Positions 5,434 through 28,713 of a stretch of DNA of 64,000 nt are shown here, in pieces (the first letter of the stretch is position 1; the number at the start of each line of letters is the position of its first letter). The stretch comes from Raillietiella orientalis (lineage: Eukaryota). Location: positions 124,001 to 188,000 of the forward strand of contig JAYWIR010000090.1 of NCBI GenBank assembly GCA_036172245.1. The letters run 5' to 3'. The position numbers and the translations under genes were made by a program. Under the pieces are notes generated by a model, which searched no databases, was not told the DNA's origin, and saw only the letters and a list, made by a program, of their open reading frames with translations.

Positions 5434-8400
5434 ATTTCAATCTCCGCGTTTTCTAACAGGTGAGCCAGAAACACAACAGAACGCGATGAACGAGTTGTGC
5501 GCCGCCATGCGTAAGCGCAACTTGTTCGCGGGTGAGAGGGGAATGGTCCGCAGCATCGACCACGTCTACCTCGACGCTGACCTGTGTTCACGGGTCGGCA
5601 AACGGGGGAGGGTTGCGTCGACATTGTCGGAGCATTCCAGGCTAATTTTCGAGGTGCGGCCTCGTGACAAAGGACTGCCATCCAGGGATTGGCGTCTGCC
5701 GGGGGACTGAACGCGTTTCTCAGGTGCGAAGGAACTCCTTCGCGAATACCTGAGATGCGTCACGCTCCGGAATCTCCAGGACTGGGACCTTTTTAAGGAA
5801 TCGGTATGGGAGTTATGCGAGCAGTTCCCCCTGGCTCGCCTGCCCCCCGGATCCGGCAAGGGTACTCGCAACCATCGGGCCTATTTACAGGCTCGTAGGT
5901 ACGAGAGAACCCCTAATGTCTGTCTCCTGGCCGAGTACCGCGCCGGGGCCGAACGCCAAGCCTGGCAATGCGGGTGGGCCAGCTTGCTGGACGACCAGGG
6001 CCGGGAATGTTCGTCCCCGGCGTCGGTACGGCATCTCGTGCGGAGTTTTTATTCCTTTCTTTACGCCAGGGAGCCCCCGGATCGGAACGCCTGTCGGCGC
6101 TTGCTTCCGGATGGCGCCCCGGCAATAGGGGAGGAGGAGATGGAAAGCCTCGAAAGCCCCTTTACCACCGGCGAAATTCTCGCCGGTATCGAAAGTCTCA
6201 AGAGGCGTAAAGCTCCAGGAGAAGACAACTTGCCCGCGGAGTTCTTACAGAGGTTCGCGGAAGAGCTGGCACCCCTGCTGCTTAAGTTGATCAGGCTGAT
6301 CCGAGACGAAGGCGATGTTCCCGCCTCGTTTCGGTCAGCCAGAGTGAGGCTCCTTCCGAAAGGGGGAGACCTCAGGAATTTAAAGAACTGGCGTCCGATC
6401 ACTATCGTGAATACGGACGCCAAGTTCATAGCAGGGATATTTGCTTCGCGTCTAGGGCAGGTGGCAGAATCCGTAATTAGCCCGGAGCAGACTTATGCTG
6501 TTCCCGGGCGAAGTGTGGATGCCAACCTCTTCTTCGCAAGCACATGGGTGCACCTGCAGAGAAGAGAATAGAAAGGGATAGGGAAAGTCGGCAACCCCAC
6601 ATTGGAGCCGCCAGCCGGGCTGGGAAGGGTCCCCCGGGCGGGGAAAGGGGCCTTAGCGCTCGCAGTCGATCCCCACAGGGCGTTCGACTGTGTAGACCAG
6701 GAACTCCTCTTGGAGCTCCTGGGTCGCAAGGGCTTCCCACCCTCCCTGATTTCCAACCTGCGCTCTTGCTGGCGGAATGCGATGATTACCGTCTCTTTCA
6801 GTGGACAGAAGGTGTATGGTGTGCCGGTGCGGCGGGGCATAAGGCAGGGCGATAGCCTCAGCCCCCTTCTCTTCAGCACCTACTTTGAGTTGGTGCTGAG
6901 AGCGTACAGGGTGACTTTGACCCCCTTGCCGAGCTCGTGCCCGGCACGCCCGCCGTAGCAGCGTACGCCGACGATCTTCTGCTCTTGTTGCCAATGTTCA
7001 CCCCGAAAAAGGCGGTCGGATACTTCTTCGATCTGATCAGACGTGGGACCGGACTGCAGGTTAACAGGGCGAAGTCGTCGGTTGTGCCAATAGGTGCGGC
7101 GTGGGCAGGGCAGCAGGACTGGGTCCGTCTGGGGATCCCCACGGCGAGGTGCTTTAAGTACCTTGGTGTGCCGTTTGGGGACTACTCCCCTGCGGAAGGG
7201 TGGTTCAGCTGCCTCCAAAAAGTCGAGACGGCGATCGGCCCGTTCTCCGATGGCAAGTTTCACTTGCCGGAACGGGCCGCGGTTTGGAACGCCTTCGCGG
7301 CTTCCATTCTCCGCCCCTTGCTTTTTGTTTGCCCCCCCACCATGGAATCCAAGAAGAGGACGAAGGACCTCCTTCGTATCGCCCTTTGGGGCAAGGGGAG
7401 GCCCCGAGTCCCACTGAAGGACTTGTGCGCTCCGCGTCGGGACGGCGGTCTTGGCCTACTGACGCTGAAGCGCGTGGAGAAGTAGCTGCGGTGGCAAACC
7501 CTCGCCATCGCAGCGAAGATGTGGAGCACCCCTTGGTGCACTCCGGCCCGCCTCCTGGCCAGCCGTGTGTCCCGTTGCGATGGACTCGCGTCTTTTCTTC
7601 TGAGCCGTGGCCGGAAGATGCGAAGATACGGCCTACTGCTCGGGCGCATGGCAACATTGGCCAAGGAGAACTGCTGGATGGTTTGCTGCCCCGCCAACTC
7701 CCCCGCCTGGCTGGAGGAGAATATTGGAACGTGGGCATTGGTTAACCAGAGAAGCCACGATACGTGGAATCGTCTCCGATGCAGCCCCTAAACCCGCTGC
7801 ACGCTGCGGAATCTCCTGGAGAGTCCAGCAAGATGCACGTGAGCACAGACGACCTGCCTAGCTACGGCACTGCCCTTCCTGAGGAGGGCGCTTAACAGCA
7901 GCCGAACGCCAAGGTGGCAAGTCTCCTGCTGCATCGAGGGACGCGATAAGTTAATCAGCGGCTGGACAACAGGAGAACTGGCCGACGCCACGACCCCGAG
8001 CGTCCAGCCGCGAGGATTATTAAGATGGGGCGAGCTGCTCGCCATCCCCAGGGATGAGCTGAAGTGGCCCCCGGTGATGAAGGAGTCCAGGATCCTGCCC
8101 CTCAGGTGGCAAGAGTCGGCGTTGCTTTTTTTGCACTGGGTTCTACCCTGGAACGCACGCAGCTCTCACTGGACAAGAGGAGTTTTGGATCCTGCGTGTG
8201 TCAGGTGCGGAGAGCGGGAATCGCTCTCCCACCTTATTGTGGACTGTGCTGCCCTTCGTCCGCTTTGGGAACGGTTTGGGACGATCCTCGGTCTCCCTAC
8301 GGGCAGTTCCCCTAGAGACGTTCTCCGGCCCCTCTTCGTGAAGGACGCCCTGCAGCCAGCCGCAGCCCTTGCAGCCTTGTGCTGCGTCCGAGGCATCGTG

Positions 8401-8571
8401 GCGGCATGGAGCGACACCAACAAGGAAGGAGTGGGTCAACACGCGAGGGATGTCATCCCATATGCCCAACGCTTCTTGCGGAGAGCTGCTGGATGGCCCC
8501 AACTGGAAAATATACGGATGGACCTCGAGGCCTTCCTTCAACGGATGGGCCCTCCTCTCAGCGAACAGTGA
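5434..8571 (+). pseudogene. Copy B ORF2 remnant (EN C-terminal half, RT, CCHC)
   Basis: IDHVY, WRPITI, RQGDSLSP, YADD, KYLG, CVRCGERESLSHLIVDC; stops at 5710, 6571, 7485, 7791 and a frameshift near 6940. Confidence 0.9.
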
Positions 8572-8780
8572 TCCCTTCCCTGCCCCCCAACCTCATTTGT
8601 ATGTTTGCCTTTTTGTTTTTATTTTTGTTTTTCCCCATCCCCTTTCGCTGCCGGGGAGTGCCACTCCGGGCTGCGTCCCGGCGTTTCGGTAGGTCCCGTG
8701 CATAAGGCCGTGGGCGGGGCCTGGTTCCGCAATTGTAGAGTTTTTTATAAATAAAAGCCAAGGGCATACCCGGGTGGCAA
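5434..8780 (+). mobile_element. Copy B, 5'-truncated non-LTR element (same subfamily as D/E)
   Basis: Begins inside EN at the GDFN codons (atttcaatctccg, matching D); ends AATAAA (8750-8755)...CCCGGGTGGCAA. Confidence 0.9.
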
Positions 8781-8791
8781 CGCCTAATGCC
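8781..8791 (+). other. Degenerate target/spacer motif between B 3' end and C 5' end
   Basis: cgcctaatgcc, 2 mismatches to cgccgaatccc; same context (GGTGGCAA|motif|TTGGCGAGTGG) as the E-D junction. Confidence 0.7.
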
Positions 8792-8887
8792 TTGGCGAGT
8801 GGACGTGTTTTTCCTACGCTTCCGAGTGAGTCGACAGGGAGCGGTTTTTTCTTTGTGTGTGTTCGTGTGGAACATCGTTGGGTTCCA
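8792..8887 (+). promoter_or_regulatory. ~96-bp 5' UTR, putative internal promoter
   Basis: Near-identical 5' UTRs in D (17197-17291) and E (22859-22953); motif ACGYGTTTTT...GCTYCCG..TGAG.CGA also in divergent F; promoter role inferred from LINE biology. Confidence 0.45.
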
Positions 8888-10760
8888 ATGGCAGCGATGC
8901 CTGAGGACACCACGATGGAGGTAGGTGTGGGGGAGGCTTGCCCACCTCCACAGCCTACAGAATCAGGAGCGTCCGCCCCGGAATCGCTCTCGCCGTCCAA
9001 GGCGAGTAGCTTGAGCGTCATGGTGGCCGCGCCGAGAGCGGAAACCATGGCCGAGATGGCGGCCTACCGGGCAGCTGAGTACAAGCCCAGCTTGGTGTAC
9101 CAGGTAGGCCCCTTATTTGATGGAAAAACGGCACGCGCGTTTTCGGAAGCGCTGCAAAACGCCGGAGTAAAAGAACAAGATCTTGACGGTTTTTCCGTTC
9201 TCAGCGGAGGTCAGCGAGTCGAGGTGGTGTGCAAGGAGATCACCTTGGCTCAGAAACTGATCACCAACCCGTTGAACGTCGACGGCCTCAAGATCTTGCC
9301 GGTGACGATGGACCGCTCCATGGTGGTCCATCTCACTGGAATAACGAGCCGTATGACTCGCTCTGCGGTAGCACAAGAACTTCGGAAGTTCGGCGAGGTG
9401 CACGCGCTGTGGCCTAAGCCAACAATCTTCGAAGGCCTTAATAGCCATTTCGGAGGCCAGGCTTCAGCGCGGGTAACCGTGAGTAAGGACTGTGGGCTTC
9501 CTTACAAGCTGGAGTTCGCGCAAGAGATAGTGGACCTCTGGTACGTGAGAAAGCCCCGGTATTGCGGCTACTGCGATACCGTAGGACACCTTCGCAAGAG
9601 GTGTGCTAACATCCAATGCCACATGTGCGGGGAGAAGGGCCACGTTCGACGTGTGTGCCCAAAACGCCCCACCCCGGATCCTCCTGCCGCGAAAAAGGCG
9701 CAGGGGAAACGCGCACTAAAGGTCACAAGACCTACGGCGGACGCTGGCCGGCAGAAGCTGCCAGATCCTCAACCTCCAAAAGAAAAGACGGAGGGTGAAC
9801 CTTCCCAAGAGGCGGAAGGTGAAGAGGGCTGGCAACTTGTAGCAGCCAGAAAAGAGAAAAAATCTTTTTTAAAGGAGAAGAAAGAGGAGCCGGTCGGTAA
9901 GGCAAAAAAAACCCGGGCCGCGCTCGAAAACTCTGCGCGTGTGCACGGTGGCACTGGAACGAATCGTCGTTCCCGAGGTTGCCACGCGGAGCGACGATCC
10001 TCCCCTTGCCGTTTACGCTGCTCTCGAGGCTCGCGACGACGAACCCTCTGTTTACACAGAGGGTGAGCCGCGCGACATAGCGGCGGTCGAAGCCGCGGAC
10101 GCCGCGTTCGCGCAGGCGGCGGAGGAGCTCGCGGTCACGCTGGCCGAGCGTGAGAACCCCTCGCGCAAGGCCGTGCGAAGGCCGGCTCCGGCGAAGAAGG
10201 CCCCCACAGGTGAGTTAGATCTGGGGGCCGGAAGTACATCCTCCTCCTCGGAGGCACCCCCCAGGAAGTCGGGACGCAATTCCCAGAAGCTAAGGAGGCG
10301 CCTCCCCTCCACCAGCGAGGAGAAGACGGAAGCCGTCGCCAGCGTGGGAAATTCGGAGGAGGAATTCCCACACTCGGAAGCCGTCGATCCGGCCACCCCC
10401 ATGGAAGAGGGTGAACAGGGGGGTGAAGTCTTCCCTGCAGGCGCCGACCCTGAACAGCCTGCCCTCATGGAGGAGGGCGAACAGGTAGGCGCGACCCCAC
10501 CTGTGGGTGAGCCAATCGACGTACAGTTTCTTATGGAGGAGGGTAACCAGGGGTCAGCAATGCCCTCTGAAACCGCCGAACCTGAACCACCCGCACCAAT
10601 GGATGTGGGCCAACAAGTACGAACAACACCCTCTTCGCACGGGCAGCCGGAGACGTCGGCACGTAAGAAGGATGGGGAGTTGGTGGGCAAGACGCCAACC
10701 CCGTCCAGAGACCCACCCCGAAAGGTGGCGGTCGCCGCAGTGCCATCTTCCCAGGAGTAA
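8888..10760 (+). pseudogene. Copy C ORF1 (two CCHC knuckles), one frameshift in the A-run near 9904-9911
   Basis: MAAMPEDTT start; CGYCDTVGHLRKRC and CHMCGEKGHVRRVC; continues in ORF 9939..10760, collinear with D/E ORF1. Confidence 0.87.
10401..10700 (+). repeat. 66-bp (22-aa) coding tandem repeat 'MEEGEQ...' in the ORF1 tail
   Basis: ATGs at 10401, 10467, 10533, 10599, exactly 66 bp apart, plus a degenerate fifth unit; 3 units in D and E. Confidence 0.8.
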
Positions 10761-11642
10761 CACCTGGACTCGCCTGTCGCCGTCGGATCCGCGCGGCCAG
10801 TTGGAATGTTAACGGGCTGCGCGACGACGGAAACAGACTAGATACAGCCGCCACCTTGCGAGATTTCGACCTGGTGCTTTTGCAGGAGATCCACGTGATC
10901 ACCGCAAAAGACGCCCAGGAGATCGAAACGATCGCAGGAGGGCGGTTGTACTGGCGATGCGGCGCCCGCAACACTTGTAGGGTCGCGTTCTTCCTAAAGC
11001 CAGCCATTAACGCGGCCGTGAAGGGCGATCGCTTTGGGGACGACGGACGGATCGGCCAACTGATTCTCAGATGGTCCGATTCGATCGACCTCATCGTCAC
11101 CAATGTGTACGCTCCTAGCGGTAAACAGGGATACCAGCAGCGCAACGCGTTACTGGAAACCTTGAAGCGCGAATGGCTGGTGGACGCGGACGTGCGAAAG
11201 GCGCATCTGATAGCACGGGATCTCAACGTCCGTCTGCTCTCAGATCAGCCCGGAGCACAGGGGAACGCGATCAACGAGTTGTGCGCCGCCATGCGCGCGC
11301 GCAACTTGTTGACAGAAATAAGCGGGTTGGTCAGCAGCGTGGACCACGTCTTCCTCGACGAAGACCTGTGCACACGGGTCGGAAAACGAGGGACACTTGG
11401 ATCGACGCTGTCGGACCATTCCCGGTTAGTATTCGAGATACGTCCGCGCGACAAGGAACCGCCTTCCAGGGATTGGCGTATGCCAGGGGACTGGACGCGC
11501 CTGTCAGGAGCGAAAGAACATCTTCGCGAATTCCTGCGAGGCGTCAGCCTCCAGAGTCTCGCGGATTGGGACCTATTTAAGGACTCGGTCCGGGAGTTCT
11601 GCGAACAGTTCCCTGTGCAACGTCTGCCCCGGGGATTCGGCG
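10760..11642 (+). pseudogene. Copy C ORF2 N-terminal part (APE endonuclease)
   Basis: SWNVNGL, LLQE, NVYAP, RDLN (degenerate GDFN), VDHVF, SDH. Confidence 0.88.
11632..11642 (+). other. Target-site duplication, left copy
   Basis: gggattcggcg; right copy gggattcgacg at 22954-22964. Confidence 0.82.
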
Positions 11643-11847
11643 TTGCCACCCGGGTACGCCCGGGGCGTTTATTGATAAACTTTACATGCGTGGTACAAGG
11701 CCCCACCACGGCCGTAAACACAGGACCTGTCGGGACACCGGGACGCAGCCCGGCGTGGCACTCCCCGACAGCGAAGGGGGATGGGGATGAGACAAAAAGT
11801 AAAATAAAAAGAAACAAACAAAAAGAAGTTGGAGGGCAGTGAAGGGA

Positions 11848-14800
11848 TCACTGGTCGCTGTGGGGAGGGCCCATCCGTCGAACGAAGCCCTCGAGGTCAG
11901 CCTGCATATTCCCCAGTTGGGGCCATCCGGCAGCTCTTCGCAAGAAGCGTTTGGCATACGGGATGACATCCCTCGCCTGTGGACCCACTCCTTCGTTGTT
12001 GGCGTCGCTCCATGCCGCCACGATACCACGGACGCAGCACAAGGCTGCGATGGCTGCGGCTGGCTGCAGTGCGTCCTTCACGAAGAGGGGCCGAAGAAAG
12101 TCTCTGGGGGTGCTGCCCGTAGGGAGCCCGAGGGTCGTCCCGAACCGTTCCCTAAGGGGTCTGAGGAAAGCACAATCCACAATAAGGTGGGGAAGCGACT
12201 CCCGCTCCCCGCACCTGGCACACCCAGGATCCACAGCTCCCCTCGTCCAGTGGAAGCGGCGCGCGTTGCAGGGTCGACCCCAGTGCAACAAAAGCAACGC
12301 CGACTCTTGCCACTTCAGGGGCAGGATCCTGGATTCTTTCATCACCGGGGGCCACTTCAGCTCATCCCTGGGGATGGCAAGCAGCTCGCCCCATCTTAAC
12401 AATCCTCGCGGCTGGACGCTCGGGGTCGAGGCGTCGGCCAGTTCTCCTGTTGTCCAGCCGCTGATCAACTTCTCCCGTCCCTCGATGCAGCAGGAGACTT
12501 GCCACCTTGGCGTCCGGGTGCTGTGAAGTGCCCTCCTTAGGAAGGGTAGCGCCGTAGCTAGGCAGGTCGTCTCTGCCCACGTGCATCTTGCTGGACTCTC
12601 CAGGAGATTCCGCAGCGTGCAGCGGGCGTAGGGGCTGCATCGGAGACGATTCCACGTTTCGTGGCTTCTCTGGTTGACTACTGCCCACGTTCCAATATTC
12701 TCCTCCAGCCAGGCGGGGGAGTTGGCGGGGCAGCAAACCATCCAGCTGTTCTCCTTGGCCAATGTTGCCATGCGACCGAGCAGTAGGCCGCATCTTCGCA
12801 TCTTCCGGCCACGGCTCAGAAGAAAAGACGCGAGTCCATCGCACCGGGACACACGGCTGGCCAGGAGGCGGGCCGGAGTGCACCAAGGGGTGCTCCACAT
12901 CTTCGCTGCGATGGCGAGGGTTCGCAACCGCAGCTGCTTTTCCACGCGCTCCAGCGTCAGGAGGCCAAGACCGCCGTCCCGACGCGGAGCGCACAAGTCC
13001 TTCAGTGGGACTCGGGGCCTCCCCTTGCCCCAAAGGGCGATACGGAGGAGGTCCTTCGTCCTCTTCTTGGATTCCACGGTGGGGGGGCAAACAAAAAGCA
13101 AGGGGCGGAGGATGGGGCCGCGAAGGGGTTCCAAACCGCGGCCCGTTCCGGCAAGTGAAACTTGCCTTCCAGGAACGGGCCGATCGCCGTCTCGACTTTT
13201 TGGAGGCAGCTGGACCACGCTTCCGCAGGGGAGTAGTCCCCCAACGGCACACCAAGGTACTTGAAGCACCTCGCCGTGTGGATCCCCAGACGGACCCAGT
13301 CCTGCTGCCCTGCCCACGCCGCACCTATTGGCACAACCGACGACTTCGCCCTGTTAACCTGCAGTCCGGTCCCGCGGCTGAGCAGATCGAAGAAGTCTCC
13401 GACCGCCATTGCCGGGGTGGACATTGGCAACAAAAGCAGAAGATCGTCGGCGTACGCTGCTACGGCGGGCGTGCCGGGGCACGAGCTCGGCAATGGGGCC
13501 AAAGTCACCCTGTACGCTCTCAGCACCAACTCAAAGTAGGTGCTGAAGAGCAGGGGGCTGAGGCTATCTCCCTGCCTTATGCCCCGTCGCACCGGCACGC
13601 CATGCACCTTGTGACCGCTGAAAGAGACGGTAATTGTCGCATTCCCACAGCAAGAGCGCAGGTAGGAAATCAGGGAGGGTGGAAAGCCTATGCGACCAAG
13701 GAGCTCCAAAAGGAGTTCCTGGTCTACACAGTCGAACGCCCTGTGGAGATCGACTGCGAGCGCTAGGGTTCCCTTCCCCGCCCGGGGTTCCCTTCCCATC
13801 CCGGCTGGCGTCCTTAATGTGGGGTTGCCGACTTTCCCTATCGCTTTCTTTTCTCTTCTTTGCAGGTGCACCCATGTGCTTGCGAAGAAGAGGTTGGCAT
13901 CCATACTTCGCCCGGGAACAGCATAAGTCTGCTCCGGGCTAATTACGGATTCTGCCACCAGCCCCAGACGCGAAGCCCATAGCCCTGCGATCAACTTGGC
14001 GTCCGTATTCACGATCGTGATCGGACGCCAGTTCTTTAAATCCCTGAGGTCTCCCCCTTTCGGCAGGAGCCTCACTCTGGCTGACCGAAACGAGGCGGGA
14101 ACATCGCCTTCGTCTCGGATCAGCCTGATCAACTTAAGCAGCAGGGGTGCGAGCTCCTCCGCGAAGCTCTGAAAGAACTCCGCGGGCAAGCCGTCTTCCC
14201 CTGGAGCTTTACGCCTCTTGAGCCTTTTGATACCGGCGAGAATTTCGCCGGTGGTAAAAGGCTCGTCGAGGCTTTCCATCTCCTCCTCCCCGATTGCCGG
14301 GGCGCCATCCGGAAGCAAGCGCCGAGAGGCGTTTCGATCCGGGGGCTGCCTGGCGTAAAGGGAGGAATAGAAACTCCGCACGAGATGCCGTACCGACGCC
14401 GGGGACGAACATTCCCGGCCCTGGTCGTCCAGCAAGCTGGCCGACCCGGATTGCCAGGCTTGGCGTTCGGCCCCGGCGCGGTACTCGGCCAGGCGACGGA
14501 CATTAGGGGTTCTCTCGTACCTACGAGCCTGTAAATAGGCCCGATGGTTGCGAGCACCCTCGCCGAATCCGGGGGCAGGCGATCCAGGGGGAACTGCTCA
14601 CAGAACTCGCGGACCGATTCCTTAAAAAGGTCCCAGTCCTGGAGATTCCGGAGCGTGACACCTCTCAGGTATTCGCGAAGGTATTCCTTCGCACCTGAGA
14701 GTCGCGTCCAGTCCCCCGGCAGACGACAATCCCTGGATGGCGGTCCCTTGTCACGAGGCCGCATCTCGAAAATTAACCGGGAATGGTCCGACAACGTCGA

Positions 14801-15442
14801 CGCAACCCTCCCCCGTTTGCCGACCCGTGAACACAGGTCAGCGTCGATGAAGACGTGGTCGATGCTGCGGACCATTCCCCTCTCACCCGCGAACAAGTTG
14901 CGCGCACGCATGGCGGCGCACAACTCGTTCATCGCGTTCTCTTGTGTTTCTGGCTCACCTGTTAGCAGACGGAGATTGAAATCTCCCGCTATCAGGTGAG
15001 CCTTCCGCACGTTCGTGTCCGCCAGCCAGTCGCGCTTCAGGGAATCCAGCAGCCTGGTACGGTCGCTGTATCCCTGTTTACCGCTGGGGGCGTACACATT
15101 CGTGACGATCACTTCGATCGAGTCGGACCAGCTGAGAATCAGCTGACCGACCCGACCGTCGTCATCGAAGCGCACGCCCTTCACGGCCGCGTCGATGGCC
15201 GGCTTCACGAAGAACGCGACCCCGCAGGTGTTGCGGAGGCCGCACCGCCAATACAGCCGACCCCTCGCGATCGTCTCGATCTCCTGGGCGTCTGCCGCGG
15301 TGATCACGTGGATCTCCTGCAGCAGGGCCAGGTCGAGCTCACGCAGGGTGTCGGCCGTATCTCGCCTGTTACCGTCGTCGCGCAGCCCGTTGACGTTCCA
15401 ACAGGCGGCGCGAATCCGACGGCGACTGGCGAGCCCAGGTGT
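11848..15442 (-). pseudogene. Copy D ORF2 (APE-RT-CCHC), frameshifts near 14571 and 13115
   Basis: ORF pieces 14129..15307, 13002..14435 and 11848..13317 carry GDFN, IDH, SDH, YADD, KYLG, CARCGERESLPHLIVDC. Confidence 0.92.
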
Positions 15443-17196
15443 TATTCCTGGGAAGATGACGATGCGGCGTCCGCCACCTGTTGGGGCGGGACGCTAGGTG
15501 GAGGAGGAGGGTCAGGCGCTGCGTGCACCTGGTCCCCCTCCTCCATGGGTAACGGCGCGTCAAGGGGGTCACCCTTAAGTGGGGTGGTGCCTACCTGTTG
15601 GCCCTCCTCCATGGGGGCGGGCTGTTCAGGCTCGGCGACTGCAGGGAGGACTTCGCCCCCCTGCTCACCCTCCTCCATGGGGGTGGCCGGCTCGAAGGCT
15701 TCCGCGCGTGGGAGTTCCCCCTCCGGGATTCCCACGCTACCGCTACCTTCCTGCTTCTCCTCCTCGCTGGTGGAGGGGAGGCGCCTCCTGGGTTTCTGGG
15801 ACTTGCGTCCCGACTTCCTGGAAGGTGCCTCCGAGGAGGAGGATGCACTTCCGGCCCCCAGGTCCGACTCACCTGTGGGGGCCTTGTTCGCGGGAGCCGG
15901 CCTTCGCACGGCCTTGCGTGAGGGGTTCTCACGCTCCGCCAGCGTGGCCGCGAGCTCCTCCGCCGCCTTTGCGAACGCGGCGTCCGCAGTGTCGACCGGC
16001 GCGTCGCGCGGCTCACCCTCTGTGTAAACAGAGGGTTCTTCGTCGCGAACCTCGGGCGCGGCGGAAACGGCGAGGTAAGGCTCGTCGCCCCGGGTGGCAA
16101 TCTCGGGAACGGCTATACGCTCCAGTGCTACCGTACATTCCCGCATGGTCTTAGAGCGCGGCCCAGGTTTTTTCGCCTTGCCGGCTGTCTTTTTTACCGC
16201 TTTCGCGGGTTCCGCGGGGTGCACCTTTTTCTCCTACCTGGCCTTGACCATCTGCCAGCCGTCTTGGACTCCCGCGTCTTCGGAGGGTTTTTCTTCCGAC
16301 GCCTGTGTGGGAGGAACAGGGGCTAGCGGCTGCTGCCGGCCAGTATCTCTTTTTGGTCTTTCGACCAGTTTACTGCGTTTTGCCTGTGCTTTTTTTGCAG
16401 CAGGCGGCACCGGAGTGGGGCGTTTAGGGCATACGCGGCGTACGTGGCCCTTCTCCCCGCATAAGTGGCACACAATGTTCGGGCACCGCTTGCGCAAGTG
16501 TCCTACTGCATTGCAGTAACCACAAAAGCGGGGTTTCCCCACGTACCAGAGGTCTACGACTTCGCCATTGACCTCTAGTTTGTGGGGAAGCCCACTCTCG
16601 TTCACCGTCACGCACGCGGCGGCCTGCCCTCCGAAAAGGCTATCGTAGCCATCGAAGATTGTGGCCTTTGGCCAAAGCGCGTGAACATCCCCGTGCTTTC
16701 TTAACTGATCACCAACCGCAGACCGCGTCATGCGGCTGGTGATCCCTGTCAGATGGACCACTACGGAGCGGTCCATCGTGACTGGTAGGATCTTGCGTCC
16801 GTCCACGTTCAGCGGGGTGGTTATCAAGCTTTGCGCTAAGGTGATGTCCTTGCAGACAACCTCAACGCGCTGACCCCCGCTTAGCACGGATAGACCGTCA
16901 AGGTCCTTTTCTAACACGTTGGCGTTCTGCAGTGCTTTCGAAAAAGCGCGTGCAGTTCGCCCGTCAAAGAGATTGCCTACCTGGTAAACCAAGCTGGGCT
17001 TGTACCCAGCTGCCCGGTAGGCCGCCATCTCGGCCATGGTTTCCGCGCTCGGCGCGGCCACCATGGCGCTCCAGCTCCTCGCCTTGAGCGGCGAGGGCGA
17101 TTCCGGGGCGGACGCCCCTGATTCTGTAGGCTGTGGGGGTGGGCAAGCCTCCCCCACACCTATATTCATCGTGGTGTCCTCAGGCATCGCTGCCAT
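15442..17196 (-). pseudogene. Copy D ORF1, single in-frame TAG at 16234-16236
   Basis: 16234..17229 and 15442..16224 share a frame; E has AAG at the stop position; two CCHC knuckles. Confidence 0.9.
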
Positions 17197-17291
17197 CGGA
17201 CACCAACGATGTTCCACACTGAACAACACAACAAAAAACCGCTTCCTGTCGACTCACTCGGGAGCGAAGGAAAAACACGTCCACTCGCCAA

Positions 17292-17302
17292 GGGTTTCGG
17301 CG
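17292..17302 (+). other. Target-motif spacer between tandem copies D and E
   Basis: gggtttcggcg between D's 5' end and E's 3' end. Confidence 0.8.
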
Positions 17303-17508
17303 TTGCCACCCGGGTACGCCCGGGGCGTTTATTGATAAACTTTACATGCGTGGTACAAGGCCCCACCACGGCCGTAAACACAGGACCTGTCGTGACACCG
17401 GGACGCAGCCCGGCGTGGCACTCCCCGACAGCGAAGGGGGATGGGGATGAGACAAAAAGTAAAATAAAAAAGAAACAAACAAAAAGAAGTTGGAGGGCAG
17501 GGAGGGGA

Positions 17509-20500
17509 TCACTGGTCGCTGTGGGGAGGGCCCATCCGTCGAACGAAGCCCTCGAGGTCAGCCTGCATATTCCCCAGTTGGGGCCATCCGGCAGCTCTTC
17601 GCAAGAAGCGTTTGGCATACGGGATGACATCCCTCGCCTGTGGACCCACTCCTTCGTTGTTGGCGTCGCTCCATGCCGCCACGATGCCACGGACGCAGCA
17701 CAAGGCTGCGATGGCTGCGGCTGGCTGCAGTGCGTCCTTCACGAAGAGGGGCCGAAGAACGTCTCTGGGGGTGCTGCCCGTAGGGAGCCCGAGGGTCGTC
17801 CCGAACCGTTCCCAAAGGGGTCGGAGGGCAGCACAATCCCCAATAAGGTGGGGAAGCGACTCCCGCTCCCCGCACCTGGCACACGCAGGATCCACAGCTC
17901 CCCTCGTCCAGTGGAAGCGGCGCGCGTTGCAGGGTAGACCCCAGTGCAACAAAAGCAACGCCGACTCTTGCCACTTCAGGGGCAGGATCCTGGATTCTTT
18001 CATCACCGGGGGCCACTTCAGCTCATCCCTGGGGATGGCGAGCAGCTCGCCCCATCTTAACAATCCTCGCGGCTGGACGCTCGGGGTCGAGGCGTCGGCC
18101 AGTTCTCCTGTTGTCCAGCCGCTCATCAACTTCTCCCGTCCCTCGATGCAGCAGGAGACTTGCCACCTTGGCGTCCGGGTGCTGTGAAGTGCCCTCCTTA
18201 GGAAGGGTAGCGCCGTAGCTAGGCAGGTCGTCTCTGCCCACGTGCATCTTGCTGGACTCTCCAGGAGATTCCGCAGCGTGCAGCGGGCGTAGGGGCTGCA
18301 TCGGAGACGATTCCACGTCTCGTGGCTTCTCTGGTTGACTACTGCCCACGTTCCAATATTCTCCTCCAGCCAGGCGGGGGAGTTGGCGGGGCAACAAACC
18401 ATCCAGCTGTTCTCCTTGGCCAATGTTGCCATGCGCCCGAGCAGTAGGCCGCATCTTCGCATCTTCCGGCCACGGCTCAGAAGAAACGACGCGAGTCCAT
18501 CGCACCGGGACACACGGCTGGCCAGGAGGCGGGCCGGAGTGCACCAAGGGGTGCACCACATCTTCGCTGCGATGGCGAGGGTTCGCCACCGCAGCTGCTT
18601 CTCCACGCGGTCCATCGTCAGGAGGCCAAGACCGCCGTCCCGACGCGGAGCGCACAAGTCCTTCAGAGGAACTCGGGGCCTCCCCTTGCCCCAAAGGGCG
18701 ATACGGAGGAGGTCCTTTTTCCTCTTCTTCGATTCCACGGTGGGGAAGCAAACAAAAAGCAAGGGCGGAGAATGGGGGACGCGAAGGCGTTCTAAACCGC
18801 GGCCCGTTCCGGCAAGTGAAACTTTCCTTCCAGGAACGGGCCGATCGCCGTCTCGACTTTTTGGGGGCAGCTGGCCCACGCTTCCGCAGGGGAGTAGTCC
18901 CCCAACGGCACACCAAGGTACTTGAAGCACCTCGCCGTGGGGATCTTCAGACGGATCCAGTCCTGCTGCCCTGCCCACGCCGCACCTATTGGCACAACCG
19001 AGGACTTCGCCCTGTTAACCTGCAGTCCGGTCCCGGGGCTGAGCAGATCGAAGAAGTCTCCGACCGCCTTTGCCGGGGTGGACATTGGCAACAAGAGCAG
19101 AAGATCGTCGGCGTACGCTGCAACGGCAAGCGTGCCGGGGCACGAGCTCGGCAATGGGGCCAGAGTCACCCTGTACGCTCTCAGCACCAACTCAAAGTAC
19201 GTGCTGAAGAGCAGGGGGCTGAGGCTATCTCCCTGCCTTATGCCCCGCCGCACCGGCACGCCATACACCTTCTGTCCACTGAAAGAGACGGTAATCATCG
19301 CCTTCCGCCAGCAAGAGCGCAGGTAGGAAATCAAGGAGGGTGGGAAGCCCATGCGACCCAGAAGCTCCAAAAGGAGTTCCTGGTCTACACAGTCGAACGC
19401 CTTGTGGAGACGGACTGCGAGCGCTAGGGCCCCCTTCCCCGCCCGGGGGTCTTTTCCCAGCCCGGCTGGCGGCCCCAATGTGGGGTTGCCGACTTTCCCT
19501 ATCCCTTTCTTCTCTCTTCTCTGCAGGTGCACCCATGTGCTTGCGAAGAAGAGGTTGGCATCCATACTTCGCCCGGGAACAGCATAAGTCTGCTCCGGGC
19601 TAATTACGGATTCTGCCACCTTTCCCAGACGCGAAGCCCATAGCCCTGCGATCAACTTGGCGTCCGTATTCACGATCGTGATCGGACGCCAGTTCTTTAA
19701 ATCCCTGAGGTCTCCCCCTTTCGGCAGGAGCCTCACTCTGGCTGACCGAAACGAGGCGGGAACATCGCCTTCGTCTCGGATCAGCCTGATCAACTTAAGC
19801 AGCAGGGGTGCCAGATCTTCCGCGAAGCTCTGAAAGAACTCCGCGGGCAAGCCGTCTTCCCCTGGAGCTTTACGCCTCTTGAGCCTTTTGATACCGGCGA
19901 GAATTTCGCCGGTGGTAAAGGCTCGTCGAGGCTTTCCATCTCCTCCTCCCCTATTGCCGGGGCGCCATCCGGAAGCAAGCGCCGAGAGGCGTTTCGATCC
20001 GGGGGCTGCCTGGCGTAAAGAGAGGAATAGAAACTCCGCACGAGATGCCGTACCGACGCCGGGGACGAACATTCCCGGCCCTGGTCGTCCAGCAAGCTGG
20101 CCGACCCGGATTGCCAGGCTTGGCGTTCGGCCCCGGCGCGGTACTCGGCCAGGAGACGGACATTAGGGGTTCTCTCGTACCTACGAGCCTGTAAATAGGC
20201 CCGATGGTTGCGAGCACCCTCGCCGAATCCGGGGGGCAGGCGATCCAGGGGGAACTGCTCACAGAACTCGCGGACCGATTCCTTAAAAAGGTCCCAGTCC
20301 TTGAGATTCCGGAGCGTGACACCTCTCAGGTATTCTCGAAGGTATTCCTTCGCACCTGAGAGTCGCGTCCAGTCCCCCGGCAGACGCCAATCCCTGGATG
20401 GCGGTCCCTTGTCACGAGGCCGCATCTCGAAAATTAACCGGGAATGGTCCGACAACGTCGACGCAACTCTCCCCCGTTTGCCGACCCGTGAACACAGGTC

Positions 20501-21105
20501 AGCGTCGAGGAAGACGTGGTCGATGCTGCGGACCATTCCCCTCTCACCCGCGAACAAGTTGCGCGCACGCATGGCGGCGCACAACTCGTTCATCGCGTTC
20601 TCTTGTGTTTCTGGCTCACCTGATAGCAGACGGAGATTGGAATCTCCCGCTATCAGGTGAGCCTTCCGCACGTTCGTGTCCGCCAGCCAGTCGCGCTTCA
20701 GGGAATCCGTGCGCCCGGCATTGTCAGCGTATCCCTGTTTACCGCTGGGGGCGGCACAGTTCGGTGATCGATCGGATTGATCGAGTCGGACCAGCTGAGA
20801 ATCAGCTGACCGATCCGACCGTCGTCATCAAACCGCACGCCCTTTACGGCAGCGTCGATGGCCGGCTTCACGAAGAACGCGACCCCGCAGGTGTTGCGGA
20901 GGCCGCACCGCCAATACAGCCGACCCCCCGCGATCGTCTCGATCTCCTGGACGTGCGCCGCGGAGATCACGTGGATCTCCTGTAGCAAGGCCAGGTTGAA
21001 CTCACGCAGTGGGTCGGCTGTGTCTCGCCTGTTGCCGTCGTCGCGCAGCCCGTTGACATTCCAACAGGCGGCGCGAATCCGACGGCGACTGGCGAGCCCA
21101 GGTGT
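17509..21105 (-). pseudogene. Copy E ORF2 (APE-RT-CCHC), frameshifted
   Basis: Pieces 20698..20988, 19790..20671, 18792..20072, 17509..18978; YADD present; GDSN instead of GDFN; indel cluster at ~20705-20780. Confidence 0.92.
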
Positions 21106-22858
21106 TATTCCTGGGAAGATGGCGATGCGGCGTCCGCCACCTGTTGGGGCGGGACGCTAGGTGGAGGAGGAGGGTCAGGCGCTGCGTGCACCTGGTCCCC
21201 CTCCTCCATGGGTAACGGCGCGTCGAGGGGGTCACCCTTAGGTGGGGTCGCGCCTACCTGTTGGCCCTCCTCCATGGGGGCGGGCTGTTCAGGCTCGGCG
21301 ACTGCAGGGAGGACTTCGCCCCCTTGCTCACCCTCCTCCATGGGGGTGGCCGGCTCGACGGCTTCCGCGCGTGGGAGGTCCCCCTCCGGGATTCCCACGC
21401 TACCGCTACCTTCCTGCTTCTCCTCCTCGCTGGTGGAGGGGAGGCGCCTCCTGGGTTTCTGGGACTTGCGTCCCGACTTCCTGGGGGGGGCCTCCGAGGA
21501 GGAGGATGCACTTCCGGCCCCCAGGTCCGACTCACCTGTGGGGGCCTTTTTCGCGGGAGCCGGCCTTCGCACGGCCTTGCGTGAGGGGTTCTCACGCTCC
21601 GCCAGCGTGGCCGCGAGCTCCTCCGCCGCCTTTGCGAACGCGGCGTCCGCAGTGTCGACCGGCGCGTCGCGCGGCTCACCCTCTGTGTAAAGAGAGGGTT
21701 CGTCGTCGCGAACCTCAGGCGCGGCGGAAACGGCGAGGGAAGGCTCGTCGCCCCGGGTGGCAATCTCGGGAACGGCTATACGCTCCAGTGCTACCGTACA
21801 TTCCCGCATGGTCTTAGAGCGCGGCCCAGGTTTTTTCGCCTTGCCGGCTGTCTTTTTTACCGCTTTCGCGGGTTCCGTGGGGTGCACCTTTTTCTCCTTC
21901 CTGGCCTTGACCAGCTGCCAGCCGTGTTGGACTCCCGCGTCTTCGGAGGGTTTTTCTTCCGACGCCTGTGTGGGAGGAACAGGGGCTAGCGGCTGCTGCC
22001 GGCCAGTATCTCTTTTTGGTCTTTCGACCAGTTTACCGCGTTTTGCCTGTGCTTTTTTTGCAGCAGGCGGCACCGGAGTGGGGCGTTTAGGGCATACGCG
22101 GCGTACGTGGCCCTTCTCCCCGCATAAGTGGCACACAATGTTCGGGCACCGCTTGCGCAAGTGTCCTACTGCATTGCAGTAGCCACAAAAGCGGGGTTTC
22201 CCCACGTACCAGAGGTCTACGACTTCGTCATTGACCTCTAGTTTGTGGGGAAGCCCACTCTCCTTCACCGTCACGCGCGCGGCGGCCTGCCCTCCGAAAA
22301 GGCTATCGTAGCCATCGAAGATTGTGGCCTTTGGCCATAGCGCGTGAACATCTCCATATTTTCTTAACTGATCACCAACCGCAGACCGCGTCATACGGCT
22401 GGTGATCCCTGTCAGATTGACCACTACGGAGCGGTCCATCGTGACTGGTAGGATCTTGCGTCCGTCCACGTTCAGCGGGGTGGTTATCAAGCTTTGCGCC
22501 AAGGTGATGTCCTTGCAGACAACCGCGACGTGCTGACCCCCGCTGAGCACGGATAGACCGTCAAGATCCTCTTCCAACACGTTGGCGTTCTGCAGCGCTT
22601 TCGAAAAAGCGCGTGCAGTTCACCCGTCAAAGAGATTGCCTACCTGGTACACCAGGCTGTGCTTGTACCTAGCTGCCCGGTAGGCCGCCATCTCGGCCAC
22701 GGTTTCGCGCTCGGCGCGGCCACCATGGCGCTCCAGTTCCTCGCCTTGGGCGGCGAGGGCGATTCCGGGGCGGACGCTTCTGATTCTGTAGGATGTGGGG
22801 GTGGGCAAGCCTCCCCCACACCTACCTCCATCGTGGTGTCCTCAGGCATCGCTGCCAT
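21105..22858 (-). pseudogene. Copy E ORF1, 1-bp deletion near 22705
   Basis: 22640..22891 plus 21105..22580; CGYCNAVGHLRKRC and CHLCGEKGHVRRVC. Confidence 0.9.
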
Positions 22859-22953
22859 CGGACACCAACGATGTTCCACACTAAACAACACAACAAAAAA
22901 CCGCTTCCTGTCGACTCACTCGGGAGCGAAGGAAACACACGTCCACTCGCCAA

Positions 22954-22964
22954 GGGATTCGACG
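22954..22964 (+). other. Target-site duplication, right copy
   Basis: gggattcgacg followed by aaggggctcgcaac (GFDEGARN), the expected continuation of C ORF2 (cf. E: GFGEGARN). Confidence 0.82.
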
Positions 22965-25671
22965 AAGGGGCTCGCAACGAACGCCCGTATTTGCACGCGC
23001 GTCGTCACGAAAGGAACCCCAATGTCCGTCGCCTAGCCGAATACCGCGCCGGAGCCGAGCGACAAGCCTGGCAATCCGGGTCAGCCAGCATGCTGGATGA
23101 CTTGGGCCGGGAACGTTCGTCGCCGTCTGCGGTACGGAATCTCGTGCGGTGTTTTTATTCCTCCCTTTACGCCAAAAGACCACCCGAACAAGACGCCTCG
23201 CGGCGATTGCTCATGAGTGGTTCCGTGGCGATAGGGGAGGAGGAGAGAGAAAGCCTTGATGAGCCTTTCACGACCGGTGAAATTCTCGCCGGTATCAAAA
23301 GGCTTAAGAGGCGTAAGGCGCCAGGGGAGGACGGCTTGCCCGCGGAGTTCTTTCAGAGTTTCGCGGAAGAGCTGGCCCCCCTGGTGCTCGAGTTGAAGGG
23401 CGAATCCGAGGCGAAGGCGATGTTACCTCCTCGTTTCGGTCAGCCAGGGTGAGGCTCCTCCCGAAGGGAGGAGACCTCAGGAAACTTTGCAACTGGCGTC
23501 CGATCACGATTGTGAACACGGACGCCAAGTTGATTGCCGGGCTGTGGGCGTCGCGATTGGGGCAGGTGTCCAATTCCATAATTAGCCCGGAGCAGACTTA
23601 CGCTGTTCCCGGGCGAAGTATGGAGGACAACCTCTTCTTCGCGAGCACATGGATGCACGCGCAGCGGAGTAATAAAGAAGGGAAAGGGAAAATTTGCAAC
23701 CCTACTTTGGGGCCGCCAGCGGGACAGGGTAGGGACCCTCATGCGAGAAAGTGGGCCTTAGCGATCGCAGTCGACCTCCATAAGGCATTCGACTGTGTTG
23801 ACCAGGAACTCCTCTTGGAGCTCCTGGGTAGCATGGGCTTCCCACCCTCCTTGATTACCTACCTGCGCTCTTGCTGGCGGAACGCGATAATCGCAATTAC
23901 TTTCAGTGGACAAAAGGTGTATGGCGTGCCGGTGCGGCGGGGCATAAGGCAGGGCGACAGCCTCAGCCCCCTGCTTTTTAGCACCTACGCTGAGTTGGTG
24001 CTGAGAGCGTACAGGGTGACTTTGGCGCCCTTGCCGAGCTCGTGCCCCGGCACGCCAGCCGTAGCGGCGTATGCCGACAATCTTCTGCTCCTCTTACCTA
24101 TGTCCACCACGGCGAAGGCGGTCGGAGATTTCTTCGACCTGCTTAGCCGTGAGGCCGGATTACAGGTTACCAGGGCGAAGTCGTCAGTGTTGCCAGTTGG
24201 AGCGACGTGGGCAGGGCAGCAGGACTGGGTCCGTCTGGGGATCCCCACGGTAAGGTTCATCAAGTACCTCGGTGTGCCGTTGGGGGACTTCTCCCCTGCG
24301 GAAGCGTGGTCCAGCTGCCTCCAAAAAGTCGAGACGGCGATCGGCCCGTTCCTGGAAGGCAAGTTTCACTTGCCGGAATGGGCCGCGGTTTGGAACGCCT
24401 TCGCGGCCGTCATCCTCCGCCCCTTGCTTTTTCTTTGCCCCGCCCCCGTGGAATCAAAAAAGCGGACGAAGGACCTCCTCCGCATAGCTCTTTGGGGCAA
24501 GGGGAGGCCCCGAGTCCCTTTGAAGGACTTGTGTGCTCCGCGTCGGGACGGCGGTCTCAGCATCCTGACGCTGGAGCGCGTGGAAATCCAGCTGCGATGG
24601 CGGACCCTTGCCATCGCAGCGAAGATGTGGAGCACCGCTTGGTGCATTCCGGCTCGCCTCCTGGCCAGGCGTGTGTCCCGCTCCGAAGGACTCGCATCGT
24701 TTCTTCTGTGCCCTGGCCGGAAGATTCGAAGATGCGGTCTACTGCTCGGCCGCATGGCAACCCTGGCAAAGGAGAACGACTGGATGGTTTGTGGCCCTGC
24801 CAACTCCTCCGCTTGGCTGGAAGAGACTGCTGGCACCTGGGCCAAGCAGAACCAGAGGTGCGAAGACCGGATGAACTGCCTGCGATTCGGCTTTTACGCC
24901 CGCCGAACTCTCCGTGAAATTCTTCAATTTCCACGGAGTTGCACGTGGGCGGAAGGCACACCCCTTGTTACGGCGATGCCCTTCCTCCAAAGAGCGCTTC
25001 ACGAAAGCCGGAAGCCAACGTGGCAAGTCTGCTGCCGTATCGCAGGCAGAGAGAAGATGATGAGCGGCTGGACCATGGGAGAGTTGACAGATGCAACGAC
25101 CCCTAATCTCCAGCCGCGTGGATTAAGAAGATGGGGCGAGCTGCTCGGCATTCGATTGGATGACCTGAAGTGGCCCCCGTGTCTACTTGGATCCAGGATT
25201 CTTCCCCTGAAGTGGCAAGAATCGGCGCTTCTGTGGCTGCATTGGGGTCTACCCTGCAACGCGCGCCGCTTCCACTGGACGCGGGGAAGAGTAAATCCTG
25301 CGTGTGCCAGGTGTGGGGAGCAGGAGTCGCTCCCCCACCTCTTAGTTGAATGCCCTGCCGTCCAGATTCTTTGGGATCGTCTGAAAACGGCCCTCCGGAT
25401 ACCGGATGGTGGCAATGTTGGATGTGTCTTCAGTCTGGTCTTCGTGCGGGACGCTCTCAGTCCAGCCGCAGCCCTGGCAGCACTTTGCTGCATTCGTGGT
25501 ATTGTGGCGGCCTGGAGTGATGCCGAACATGAAGACTGCATCGTGAGGGACGTCATCGAGTATGCTTCTCGCTTCCTGCAGAGAGCTACCCGATGGCCCC
25601 ATCTAGGAAAGCTGAAAATGGAACTAAAAGGCATCCTGCAAAGGATGGGCGCTCCCAGCAGTTTTCAGTGA
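22955..25671 (+). pseudogene. Copy C ORF2 C-terminal part (RT and CCHC)
   Basis: 740-aa ORF 23449..25671 with WRPITI, DLHKAFD, RQGDSLSP, YADN (catalytic D to N), KYLG, CARCGEQESLPHLLVEC; frameshift near 23395. Confidence 0.9.
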
Positions 25672-25899
25672 TCCCTTCCCGGCCCTCCAAACTTTTTTTT
25701 TTGTGGTTTGTTTTTCTTTTTTATTTTATTTTTGTTTTTTCCCCCATCCCCCTCCACTGCCGAGGAGAGCCACACCGGGCTGCGTCCCGGTGTCCCGGCA
25801 GTTCCGGTATTGCGTGACCGTCAGTGGGGCCTTGTACCACGTTCTGTATTGACCGTTGAAATGTTTTTTAATAAACGTCCCGGCGTATCCGGGTGGCAT

Positions 25900-26785
25900 C
25901 GCCGAAACCTGGAGGAAGTTGATGGAGGGGAAACTGGTCACAGAACTCTGGGACTGAGCGTTTTATTTTGTCCCAGTCAGCGAGAGTCTGCAGTTCGCAA
26001 CTACGCAGGAATGCGCGCAGATGTTCGCGCGGTCCTGCGAGTCGCAACCAGTCCCCCGGCAGGCGCCACGTTTCGGAAGGTGGACCTCTGTCGCGCGGAT
26101 GAATGTTGATCACTAGCCGAGAGTGATCGGACAGTTGCGACGCAATTGCTCCTCGAGTCCCCATCCGCGTACACAAGTGGTTATCGAGGAACACGTGGTC
26201 GATTCTGCTTCTCGCCCCGGCTTCATCGGCCAACAAGTTGCGTGTGTGCATAGCCGCACACAACTCGTTGACCAATTGCGCTCGTATGTCGGGCGCTTCC
26301 GACAGCAGGCGGACGTTGAAGTCTCCCGCTATCAGATGCGCCCGCCGCACGCCTGCTTCGGCCAGCACGTCTCGCCGCAGGGCTTCGAAGAACGCAGTGC
26401 GTTCTGCGCGCCTGTGGCTGGTGCAGGGCGCGTACAGGTTCGTGACTACGAGGTCGATCGATTCGGACCACTTAAGGACAAGTTGTCCGACTCGACCTCC
26501 CTCGTCGAACTGTGCACTGCGCACCGCATTGGCCACGGCCGGCTTCAGCAGGAAGGCCACTCCGCGGGAGTGGTCTCCTCCACCACGCCAAAGTAGCCTG
26601 TCCCCTGTGAGCCTCTCGATTTCCTGGACGTCCTCTGCTCTGAAGGCATGCACCTCTTGAAGAAGTGCCAGATCGAAAGGTCGCAGGGTGTCGGCCACGC
26701 TACGCCTCTTGCTTTCGCTACGCAGCCCGTTGACATTCCAACAGGCTATACGCAGCTGCCGGCAAGAGGCGATTACACGCATCAT
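25900..26785 (-). pseudogene. Copy F ORF2 N-terminal part (APE endonuclease)
   Basis: CWNVNGL, LLQE, NLYAP, GDFN, RIDHVF, SDH in one open frame. Confidence 0.9.
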
Positions 26786-28414: not shown

Positions 28415-28713
28415 TTCTGCCTTCCAACGGCAGCACTTCCAATCCACACAACACCTAGTTTTGGCTTCGCTCACGGGAGCTGACCAAAAACGCGTGCGGC
28501 ACCGGCGCAGGTTTGCCGCATTCAAGAGGTTTCAAATTGCATAGATGATGCTAATGATAAGTGTACGTTTAGTGGTGTGGAAAGAAAAGCAATTTCTGTT
28601 ATGGATGGAGGGTATCAAACAGAGCATTACAAGAAAAATCGCGACATTGTCTGGGAAACGCACTATAGAAAGGACCACCATTCCATGGTGATCCAACATT
28701 CTGATTCCTGAAT

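Follow-up and report, generated by a model that had tools for sequence, protein, structure and literature searches.

Tandem arrays of site-specific LINEs are best described for R1 of Drosophila, in which a new element inserts into the target duplication at the 5′ end of a resident copy (Stage & Eickbush, 2009; PMC2718515). In the same report, the transcripts of melanogaster-type R1 are inferred to carry 6–27 bases of upstream target, which anneal for second-strand priming. The R1Bm endonuclease is described as cutting both strands (PMC1919474). The RNAs of R2 are cut upstream in the 28S sequence, a heteroduplex of cDNA and target primes the second strand, and junction variants are propagated; the R2 of an earwig carries at its 5′ end a 22-bp copy of the downstream target with 3 substitutions, and target duplications can be absorbed as 5′ extensions of R2 (Eickbush, Burke & Eickbush, 2013; PMC3774820).

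Other transposable elements form tandems by double insertion, which leaves one target duplication as the spacer (McGurk & Barbash, 10.1101/158386), and SINEU-3 is reported as head-to-tail copies with a single duplication in between (Kojima, 2015; PMC4494074). The latter source also describes LINEs that are specific for other mobile elements, namely Tx1 in Tx1D and Tx1-Mar in Mariner-N4. Zepp and ZeppL are L1-type LINEs that are nested in existing copies and clustered (PMC3446292, PMC8226300). Stacking into arrays is known behaviour, and each of the mechanistic steps considered below has a precedent. HeT-A has a 3′ promoter with upstream tags.

In the window (the whole 64,000-nucleotide stretch of Raillietiella orientalis DNA that was analysed), nested non-LTR retrotransposons fill about 28.5 kb (Table 1). 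Elements D and E, on the minus strand, sit head to tail within element C, and the order in the sense of the elements is C flank, CGTCGAATCCC, E, CGCCGAAACCC, D, CGCCGAATCCC, C flank. At the D/E junction (minus strand, 17333-17281), the E tail, which reads AATAAA...GGGTGGCAA over 17333-17303, is followed by an 11-bp copy of the target and then by the D head. Elements B and C are likewise stacked on the plus strand, with the spacer CGCCTAATGCC between them and the host F sequence CGCCGAAACCT after the C tail. The head of B lies outside the window, upstream at G000:C90:121217, and is preceded by the target copy CGCCGAATCCC; element A is nested within the endonuclease region of B. Identical junction sequences at G000:C90:71619-71799 and C90:121037-121217, approximately 49 kb apart on the contig of the window, probably arose when the beginning of the B-C array was segmentally duplicated. 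A 278-bp satellite, AT-rich and with ~80–85% identity from unit to unit, runs from 28732 to the end of the window (28732-64000) and adjoins the LINE cluster; it is possibly centromeric.

Table 1. Elements, target copies and junction features in the window.
Feature	Position	Strand	Remarks
Element B, 3′ part	5434..8780	+	
B/C spacer, CGCCTAATGCC	8781..8791	+	T8 and C11, element-type; two more changes
Host element C, 5′ part (head to endonuclease-RT linker)	8792..11642	+	
Target copy behind D tail, CGCCGAATCCC	11632..11642	-	Runs into host C; host allele
Element D, full-length L1-group LINE (assigned)	11643..17291	-	ORF1 with CCHC knuckle, endonuclease, RT; frames broken
Empty target site in D's own ORF2 linker, CGCCGAATCCG	14561..14571	+	
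GGACGTG core in heads	17276..17282	-	Candidate DPE-type internal promoter, 20 bases behind motif start
D head, TTGGCGAGTGG	17281..17291	-	
D/E spacer, CGCCGAAACCC (target copy before D head)	17292..17302	-	A at position 8; host C has T
E tail	17303..17333	-	AATAAA + 25 bases, end GGTGGCAA, without poly(A)
Element E, full-length	17303..22953	-	96.4% identity to D
Empty target site in E's own ORF2 linker, CGCCGAATCCG	20221..20231	+	
Target copy before E head, CGTCGAATCCC	22954..22964	-	
Host element C, 3′ part (linker to tail GGTGGCAT)	22954..25899	+	
Target copy behind C tail, CGCCGAAACCT	25900..25910	+	Host F allele; A8, T11
Host element F, 5′ part (ORF1 + endonuclease)	25900..28531	-	B-C array inside, antisense

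An initial annotation of this DNA had read both the E-D and the B-C junctions as tail, 11-bp motif and head, and had stated that the spacer alleles differ from those of the hosts. The sequences bear this out: position 8 of the motif is A in the D/E spacer and T in both C flanks, and the B/C spacer has T8 and C11 against A8 and T11 in host F. A difference between the two host-C copies themselves was missing from it; CGCCGAATCCC and CGTCGAATCCC both have T8 and differ from each other at position 3. The T3 of E and the two odd bases in the B/C spacer are probably mutations, and the D/E spacer is the front copy of D, whichever element came first. The motif is rare by chance, with just 6 of the 57,380 positions in window 1-28700 falling within 1 mismatch of CGCCGAATCCC, and 80 motif-plus-head junctions are found genome-wide against 0 for a reversed control pattern.

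The elements have two ORFs, ORF1 with a CCHC knuckle and ORF2 with an APE-type endonuclease and a reverse transcriptase (RT). The domains detected are zf-CCHC (just above cut-off), Exo_endo_phos and RVT_1, with a weak zf-RVT (E 0.02) below cut-off, and an open ORF2 of ~1215 residues is present in copies elsewhere in the genome. The closest solved structure to the RT is human L1 ORF2p (E 2e-51), with R2 proteins at 7e-16 or weaker, although this placement is a coarse test because the references returned were L1 and R2 only. Protein homologues are distant and L1-like, the best with 23–29% identity, and no named Tx1 proteins occur among the 51 homologues. The tails carry AATAAA 25 bases ahead of an exact end (GGCAA, GATAA or GGCAT) and have no A run. 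A poly(A) tail is typical of L1 proper, though not universal in the L1 group. With this ORF layout and RT affinity, target duplications and 5′ truncation, the elements, which lack the poly(A) tail, are best assigned to the L1-group APE non-LTR retrotransposons.

Tail matches number 1045 genome-wide against 0 for the control and are also dispersed along large contigs. The threshold of Tx1 target specificity, more than 20% of flanks in one repeat (PMC4494074), is exceeded by the heads and is borderline for the tails, 6 of the first 30 of the 1045 lying at the linker site. Nested insertion into existing copies, as in Zepp/ZeppL, is observed. Membership in the R1 clade was rejected, as the flanks are LINE ORF2 sequence and not 28S rDNA, although tandem arrays through the 5′ duplication are an R1-like way of working; the R2 clade, with a restriction-like endonuclease and a single ORF, was rejected on the two ORFs and the APE endonuclease.

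Like R1, these are APE-type site-specific LINEs that form arrays with one duplication between members. They differ from R1 in that the target is the ORF2 linker of a sister LINE, in antisense, instead of 28S rDNA, that the putative RNA-borne piece overlaps the duplicated (downstream) target, and that ORF2 is closest to L1; moreover, the target is polymorphic here, and host and RNA contributions can be separated. R2 is resembled in the cDNA-target annealing proposed here and in junction variants that would be propagated via RNA, but R2 has a restriction-like endonuclease, rRNA co-transcription and an HDV-like ribozyme, whereas the endonuclease of the present elements is of APE type, Rfam gave no ribozyme match for them, and an internal promoter is a candidate. 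In double-insertion tandems and SINEU-3 the spacer is host sequence, while here it is often partly element-borne. The Tx1 clade is resembled in target habit, as L1-related LINEs that target another mobile element, the targets here being sister LINEs of the same group. The nested clusters are Zepp-like, and the cluster here adjoins a satellite array; however, Zepp arrays consist mostly of 3′ ends, with one cluster per chromosome, whereas full-length members are found here at one exact site together with many dispersed truncated copies.

The target lies in the endonuclease-RT linker (codons for PPGFGE) of sister subfamilies and is read on the antisense strand. Host types F, B, C and D were distinguished by their flanks, and host alleles were taken from empty sites. 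The F-site search gave 43 matches (17 empty, 23 filled, 3 unrelated), and the F allele, CGCCGAAACCT, has A8 in 17/17 empty sites and never C11. The B allele, C(A/G)CCGAAGCCC, has G8 in 49 of 52 empty sites and T8 in none of the 52. Among 35 C-site matches, 9 were empty and 22 filled, 2 ambiguous and 2 unrelated ones being left out, and the C allele, CGCCGAATCCC, has T8 in all 9 empty sites; the D allele is CGCCGAATCCG. Filled sites outnumber empty ones at F-type (23/40) and C-type (22/31) sites. The linker sites of D-type elements themselves are mostly empty, and 2 D-type rear junctions were seen. Intact TTGG-type heads number 85 (90 matches, 5 of them set aside by hand as chance). A motif copy directly precedes 84 of the 85, the exception at C20:2928955 retaining only ACCC, and 31 of the 85 are stacked by hand count, with a tail and one 11-mer directly in front.

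Related targets were also observed. A subfamily with the head TTGGCGAGCGG and the motif CCCCAAATCCC inserts into this linker site as well, in hosts of another type, and motif and host co-vary in it (G000:C26:597541, C5:2359212, C33:683748, C35:2244519, C148:18270). The TTGG family has a second target in ORF1, antisense, with the host sequence CACCT-CGCCGAAC (G000:C44:1542588, C44:1651632), an empty look-alike of which lies near window 9389 on the minus strand.

The two ends of an insertion differ in the allele that they carry. At F sites with exact flanks, rear copies (behind a tail) have A8 in 28/28 cases, and once flanks with at most one mismatch are admitted, 2 of 48 have T8; front copies, before TTGG or CGCT heads, have T8 in 14/19 and C11 in 19/19. 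Position 8 separates filled from empty F sites (T8 in 14/19 vs 0/17; p = 3e-6) as well as front from rear copies (p = 3e-8), and at B sites T8 occurs in 12 of 15 front copies vs 0 of 52 empty sites (p = 8e-11), the p values of this allele census resting on hand counts from match listings. The asymmetry is visible within single insertions, with T8 in front and A8 behind at C49:25032, T8 in front and G8 behind at C49:133110 and C62:32385, and flanks that differ at position 8 at C113:94940. Among the 31 spacers before TTGG heads, 25 have T8, 4 G8 and 2 A8, and 30 have C11. The host allele A8 survives in 5/16 TTGG-filled F front copies, and the full B allele, CACCGAAGCCC, is kept in the front copies C96:202836 and C136:41586 and in the C53 spacer; since host alleles persist in some front copies, the staggered cut is real. 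The rear copy is host DNA, and the front copy is a mosaic of host and element. This asymmetry fits target-primed reverse transcription (TPRT), because the primer lies in the rear copy and the cDNA meets the second cut at the front. The last four bases of the front copy are very probably derived from the element.

A comparison of spacer and host alleles over many junctions had been proposed along with the junction readings; in the census, spacers depart from the host recurrently, towards T8 and C11. Re-use of a duplicated target with later mutation, one of two origins that had been considered for the spacer, holds as to re-use, by which the arrays probably form, but not as to mutation, as the same change recurs at filled and never at empty sites. 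Plain re-use of the 11-bp duplication combined with random mutation is an extremely improbable account of the spacers: D and E do carry private changes (33, or 0.58%, and 45, or 0.80%; p = 0.17), and single changes in the 11-mer do occur, yet T8 and C11 replace host bases at most filled sites and at none of the 69 empty F and B sites. The census refutes random mutation for positions 8 and 11. The other origin, a motif that travels on the element RNA, is supported at the 5′ end only, almost certainly for the last four bases and probably for the whole motif with a few upstream bases. Annealing of such RNA at the nick to prime TPRT, which had been offered together with it, may take place but cannot yield the spacer allele, because primer-annealed bases are not copied and the rear copies stay host (28/28). 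The annealing favoured by the data is that of second-strand priming.

It seems rather probable from these comparisons that transcription starts within the target copy that precedes the source element, or upstream of that copy, and that the resulting cDNA pairs with the host overhang and primes the second strand there. A site-specific L1-group LINE would nick the sense strand of the ORF2 linker of a sister LINE, the opposite strand reading CCC(T)|CGCCGAAxCCx. Reverse transcription would be primed at the nick, and the copy behind the tail would then be physically host DNA, in agreement with the allele counts. The other strand would be cut ~9–13 bases downstream, to judge from truncated off-target copies, which show true duplications of 6 to ~14 bases, microhomology included, at 10 distinct loci of the 30 examined; at the other loci of the 30, no duplication was found within the 1.5 kb examined. 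The RNA would start not at TTGGCGAG but earlier, in the source's front target copy and probably ~7 bases further upstream. The end of the cDNA would be complementary to the host overhang because the RNA starts upstream in the source's target copy, and it would anneal there and prime the second strand. Mismatches in the heteroduplex would be resolved either way, which matches the observed mosaic of host and source bases in front copies. The A8 of the D/E spacer would have been brought by D's RNA from a source in an F-type host with allele A.

How far upstream the element-borne part reaches is the point on which another account diverges. If the head were fixed, the RNA would start at motif position 8, the element would begin TCCCTTGG, and nothing upstream of position 8 would travel; a 7–10-base duplication would be joined through CC/CCC microhomology, and D's A8 would be a mutation or a start base inherited from a source junction with host A. 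This accounts for the bulk of the signal, namely T8 and C11 before heads and the host alleles behind tails, and also for the host A2 kept in both copies at C49:133110 and the TGCC change common to the spacer and front copy at C96. This account is nevertheless rather unlikely. The off-target duplications are mostly 9–14 bases and not 7. In the C53 array, the front copy is CGCCGAATCCC, whereas CACCGAAGCCC stands in both the spacer and the rear copy; the front copy is therefore non-host at position 2 (G2 vs host A2) as well as at position 8. Position 2 rests on this one array, with rear flanks unread at the three B-type arrays C72:369319, C54:26087 and C35:2222325, which have G2 in front, 17 further off-target tails likewise unread, and C72:406820 reaching the contig end. 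An excess of G2 at filled B sites (6/11 vs 1/33) can be target choice, because rear copies are G2-rich too (15/21 at B sites vs 12/52 empty; p = 3e-4). Position 7 is C in front and A behind at C33:683748 and C148:18270, which a fixed head does not explain either.

Directly before the motif, a C occurs in 10/16 TTGG-filled F sites vs 1/17 empty ones (p = 8e-4), again at odds with a fixed head. Hosts with TC are scattered over the host tree and form no clade; the filled L037 (TC) is sister to the empty L197 (TT) with support 1.0. TC accompanies the youngest copies and also occurs in one C-type flank with F-like spacing (C103:103437). A TC host allele exists, in one young empty F site, and could be a preferred target; the off-target control for this C gave 2/10 and is borderline (p = 0.05). 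A GT stands just before the motif at filled sites of three host types (G000:C1:8035531, C119:27588, C111:85065, C92:191960, C187:42, C40:76499); this GT may represent a copied cap base or another allele of the leader. Full-length off-target copies preceded by a duplicated leader were not found, 84 of the 85 heads following a motif copy.

A8 is found in C-type flanks in 4 of 22 front copies and in the D/E spacer, while the 9 empty sites all have T8. Under mutation alone, with T>A changes measured at 0.55% per site, this has P = 6e-6; the contingency test (4/22 vs 0/9) is not significant (p = 0.3). At C74:370413 both flanks are of C type, with A in front and T behind. At C129:56342 a C-type front flank is joined by a D-type rear flank, and no rear flank was found for the A8 copies at C107 and C139; flank exchange may explain A8 in C hosts, because a rear flank that matches is missing in three of the four cases. 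C107 and C139 have F-like upstream spacing (GCCCTT) together with A8, on which a fixed head fails. The A8 elements do not cluster on the element tree, in which copies are mosaic and resolution is poor; the tree covers the first 1.5 kb of 32/56 copies (kept at >88% identity to D over 1400 bases) and is star-like.

Exchange at the DNA level would offer another route for such alleles. Gene conversion or crossing-over between ~98% identical copies would move junction alleles among loci, and the D/E junction would have been copied from an array in an F-type host. The copies are indeed mosaic for shared variants, front and rear flanks are unlike at C119:27588 and C129:56342, and a second tandem with the same A8 spacer exists in an F host (C26:2999605). 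Conversion should, however, hit rear junctions too, and the host allele is present in 28/28 rear copies vs 5/19 front ones; the nearest relatives of the C26 pair are not D and E, and this route is very unlikely. A C-type flank in front with a young D-type half element behind was observed at G000:C119:27588-35971 and C129:48010-56342, and these unlike flanks reflect either flank exchange or a chimeric host.

An upstream start of the RNA can be set against the candidate promoter sequence in the heads. The GGACGTG core is common to all eight head types aligned, with a single change in two copies. In insect LINE promoters a DPE is described at +28 to +32 (PMC4748587). A DPE at +28 would set the start 7 bases before the motif, at an A that lies within TCAG in F hosts and within TGAC in B hosts. 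This predicted start, which we take to resemble an initiator, is A for TTGG and GGTG heads in F and B hosts only; it is another base in four further head types, and likewise where the context is tandem or C-type. A tRNA-type internal promoter was judged by eye and rejected, as T runs come at once after. No ribozyme family was matched in Rfam by window 16900-17700 at E values up to 5, a search that divergent ribozymes may escape. Six pairs between motif and head are possible (CGCCGA with UUGGCG); this pairing was dropped as evidence, as the head region folds no better than shuffles (z -0.24) and one pair is broken in the CCCCAAATCCC subfamily. Taken with the junction alleles, a leader that covers the whole motif is likely rather than established.

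Arrays would grow when a front copy with its full upstream context is hit again, leaving one 11-mer between members. In support of this step, the upstream CCC(T) context is present at the front junction and absent at the rear one. In four comparable arrays the upstream member is clearly younger in two and slightly younger in one, the window array giving p = 0.17. Private changes number 28 in the upstream member vs 133 in its neighbour in the C53 array (0.50 vs 2.36%; p = 5e-18), distances from the majority are 1.03 vs 4.54% in the C81 array, and the members of the C26 array are about equal (0.50 vs 0.60%). At C96, the spacer and the front copy share a C>T change in their first base that the rear copy lacks, which would follow from entry of the second element into a front copy that had already mutated.

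A dimeric or read-through transcript as the source of the junction has been considered as well, either with E, spacer and D moving as one RNA or with a 3′ read-through motif copied into the junction, and is highly improbable. For the dimer, which the initial annotation had put forward, no support was found: neighbours within arrays differ in subfamily and age, and no other locus with an E plus D-like pair exists among the 28 D-like copies compared, so dimeric RNA is not needed. Read-through agrees with the exact GGCAA/GATAA/GGCAT ends without poly(A). Off-target duplications begin C-N-C-C, with CCC(T/A) before 6 of 10, and this would fit a read-through CGCC that anneals to the primer; downstream target sequence is reported to be required by R1Bm (PMC7265360). 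But the rear copies are not rewritten, and the endonuclease alone could give the C-N-C-C preference. The exact tails and this preference fit either endonuclease preference or R1Bm-like read-through annealing, between which the allele data cannot decide.

Several families share the habit of inserting into related LINEs. A different family, A, is found in sense orientation at the AGDFN codons of the endonuclease in D-type elements and makes a 9-bp duplication, ATTTCAATC (window 1-5433 and 5434-5442; G000:C53:51685, C74:138262, C103:117442, C111:93290). Its site is the centre of an imperfect inverted repeat of ~55 bases, and it is also stacked head to tail (C33:204335, C72:377525). A sister family (heads L146, L156, L182, L189; empty sites L094, L117, L127) directs its insertions to the RT region, where it leaves a 15-bp duplication that ends in TTGGCGT (CTATCAACTTGGCGT). 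The D head starts TTGGCGA, and these first seven bases match the end of the 15-bp target at 6/7. The head at C108:39327, ATCGAGAGC, resembles the end of the family A target plus head and lies behind the linker-site motif. At least three further tail types, each with its own fixed following sequence, are found inside related LINEs (G000:C35:2219670, C49:114790, C103:123442, C96:20948, C90:121037, C116:14828).

That these LINEs keep, in heritable RNA form, a record of the site where they last inserted, an old leader being frozen into the head after a change of target, is a doubtful proposition. If it were true, transcription would begin in host DNA upstream of the element, and the leader would span the nick site, replace the bases of each new target with the source allele and contribute to the selection or stabilisation of the following one. 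The heads could then be read as fossils of successive former targets, and RNA would have a part in switches of target among the cross-targeting families.

In the literature searched, which included few subscription journals and no Repbase Reports, an allele-marked asymmetry between front and rear copies was not found for an L1-group element, nor was any case in which alleles of the target distinguish the host and RNA contributions. Second-strand priming is named as the greatest uncertainty of the R2 integration model (PMC3774820). In rDNA-specific elements, host and RNA contributions are inseparable because the target is nearly invariant; the target here has at least four alleles, which act as a natural marker of a rear duplication from the host and a mosaic front one. 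A “target-site duplication” can be partly encoded by the element, and each insertion restores a consensus site into which another can follow. As in R2, homology to the target at the 5′ end may be exploited by an L1-group protein, with a bearing on precise RNA-templated insertion.
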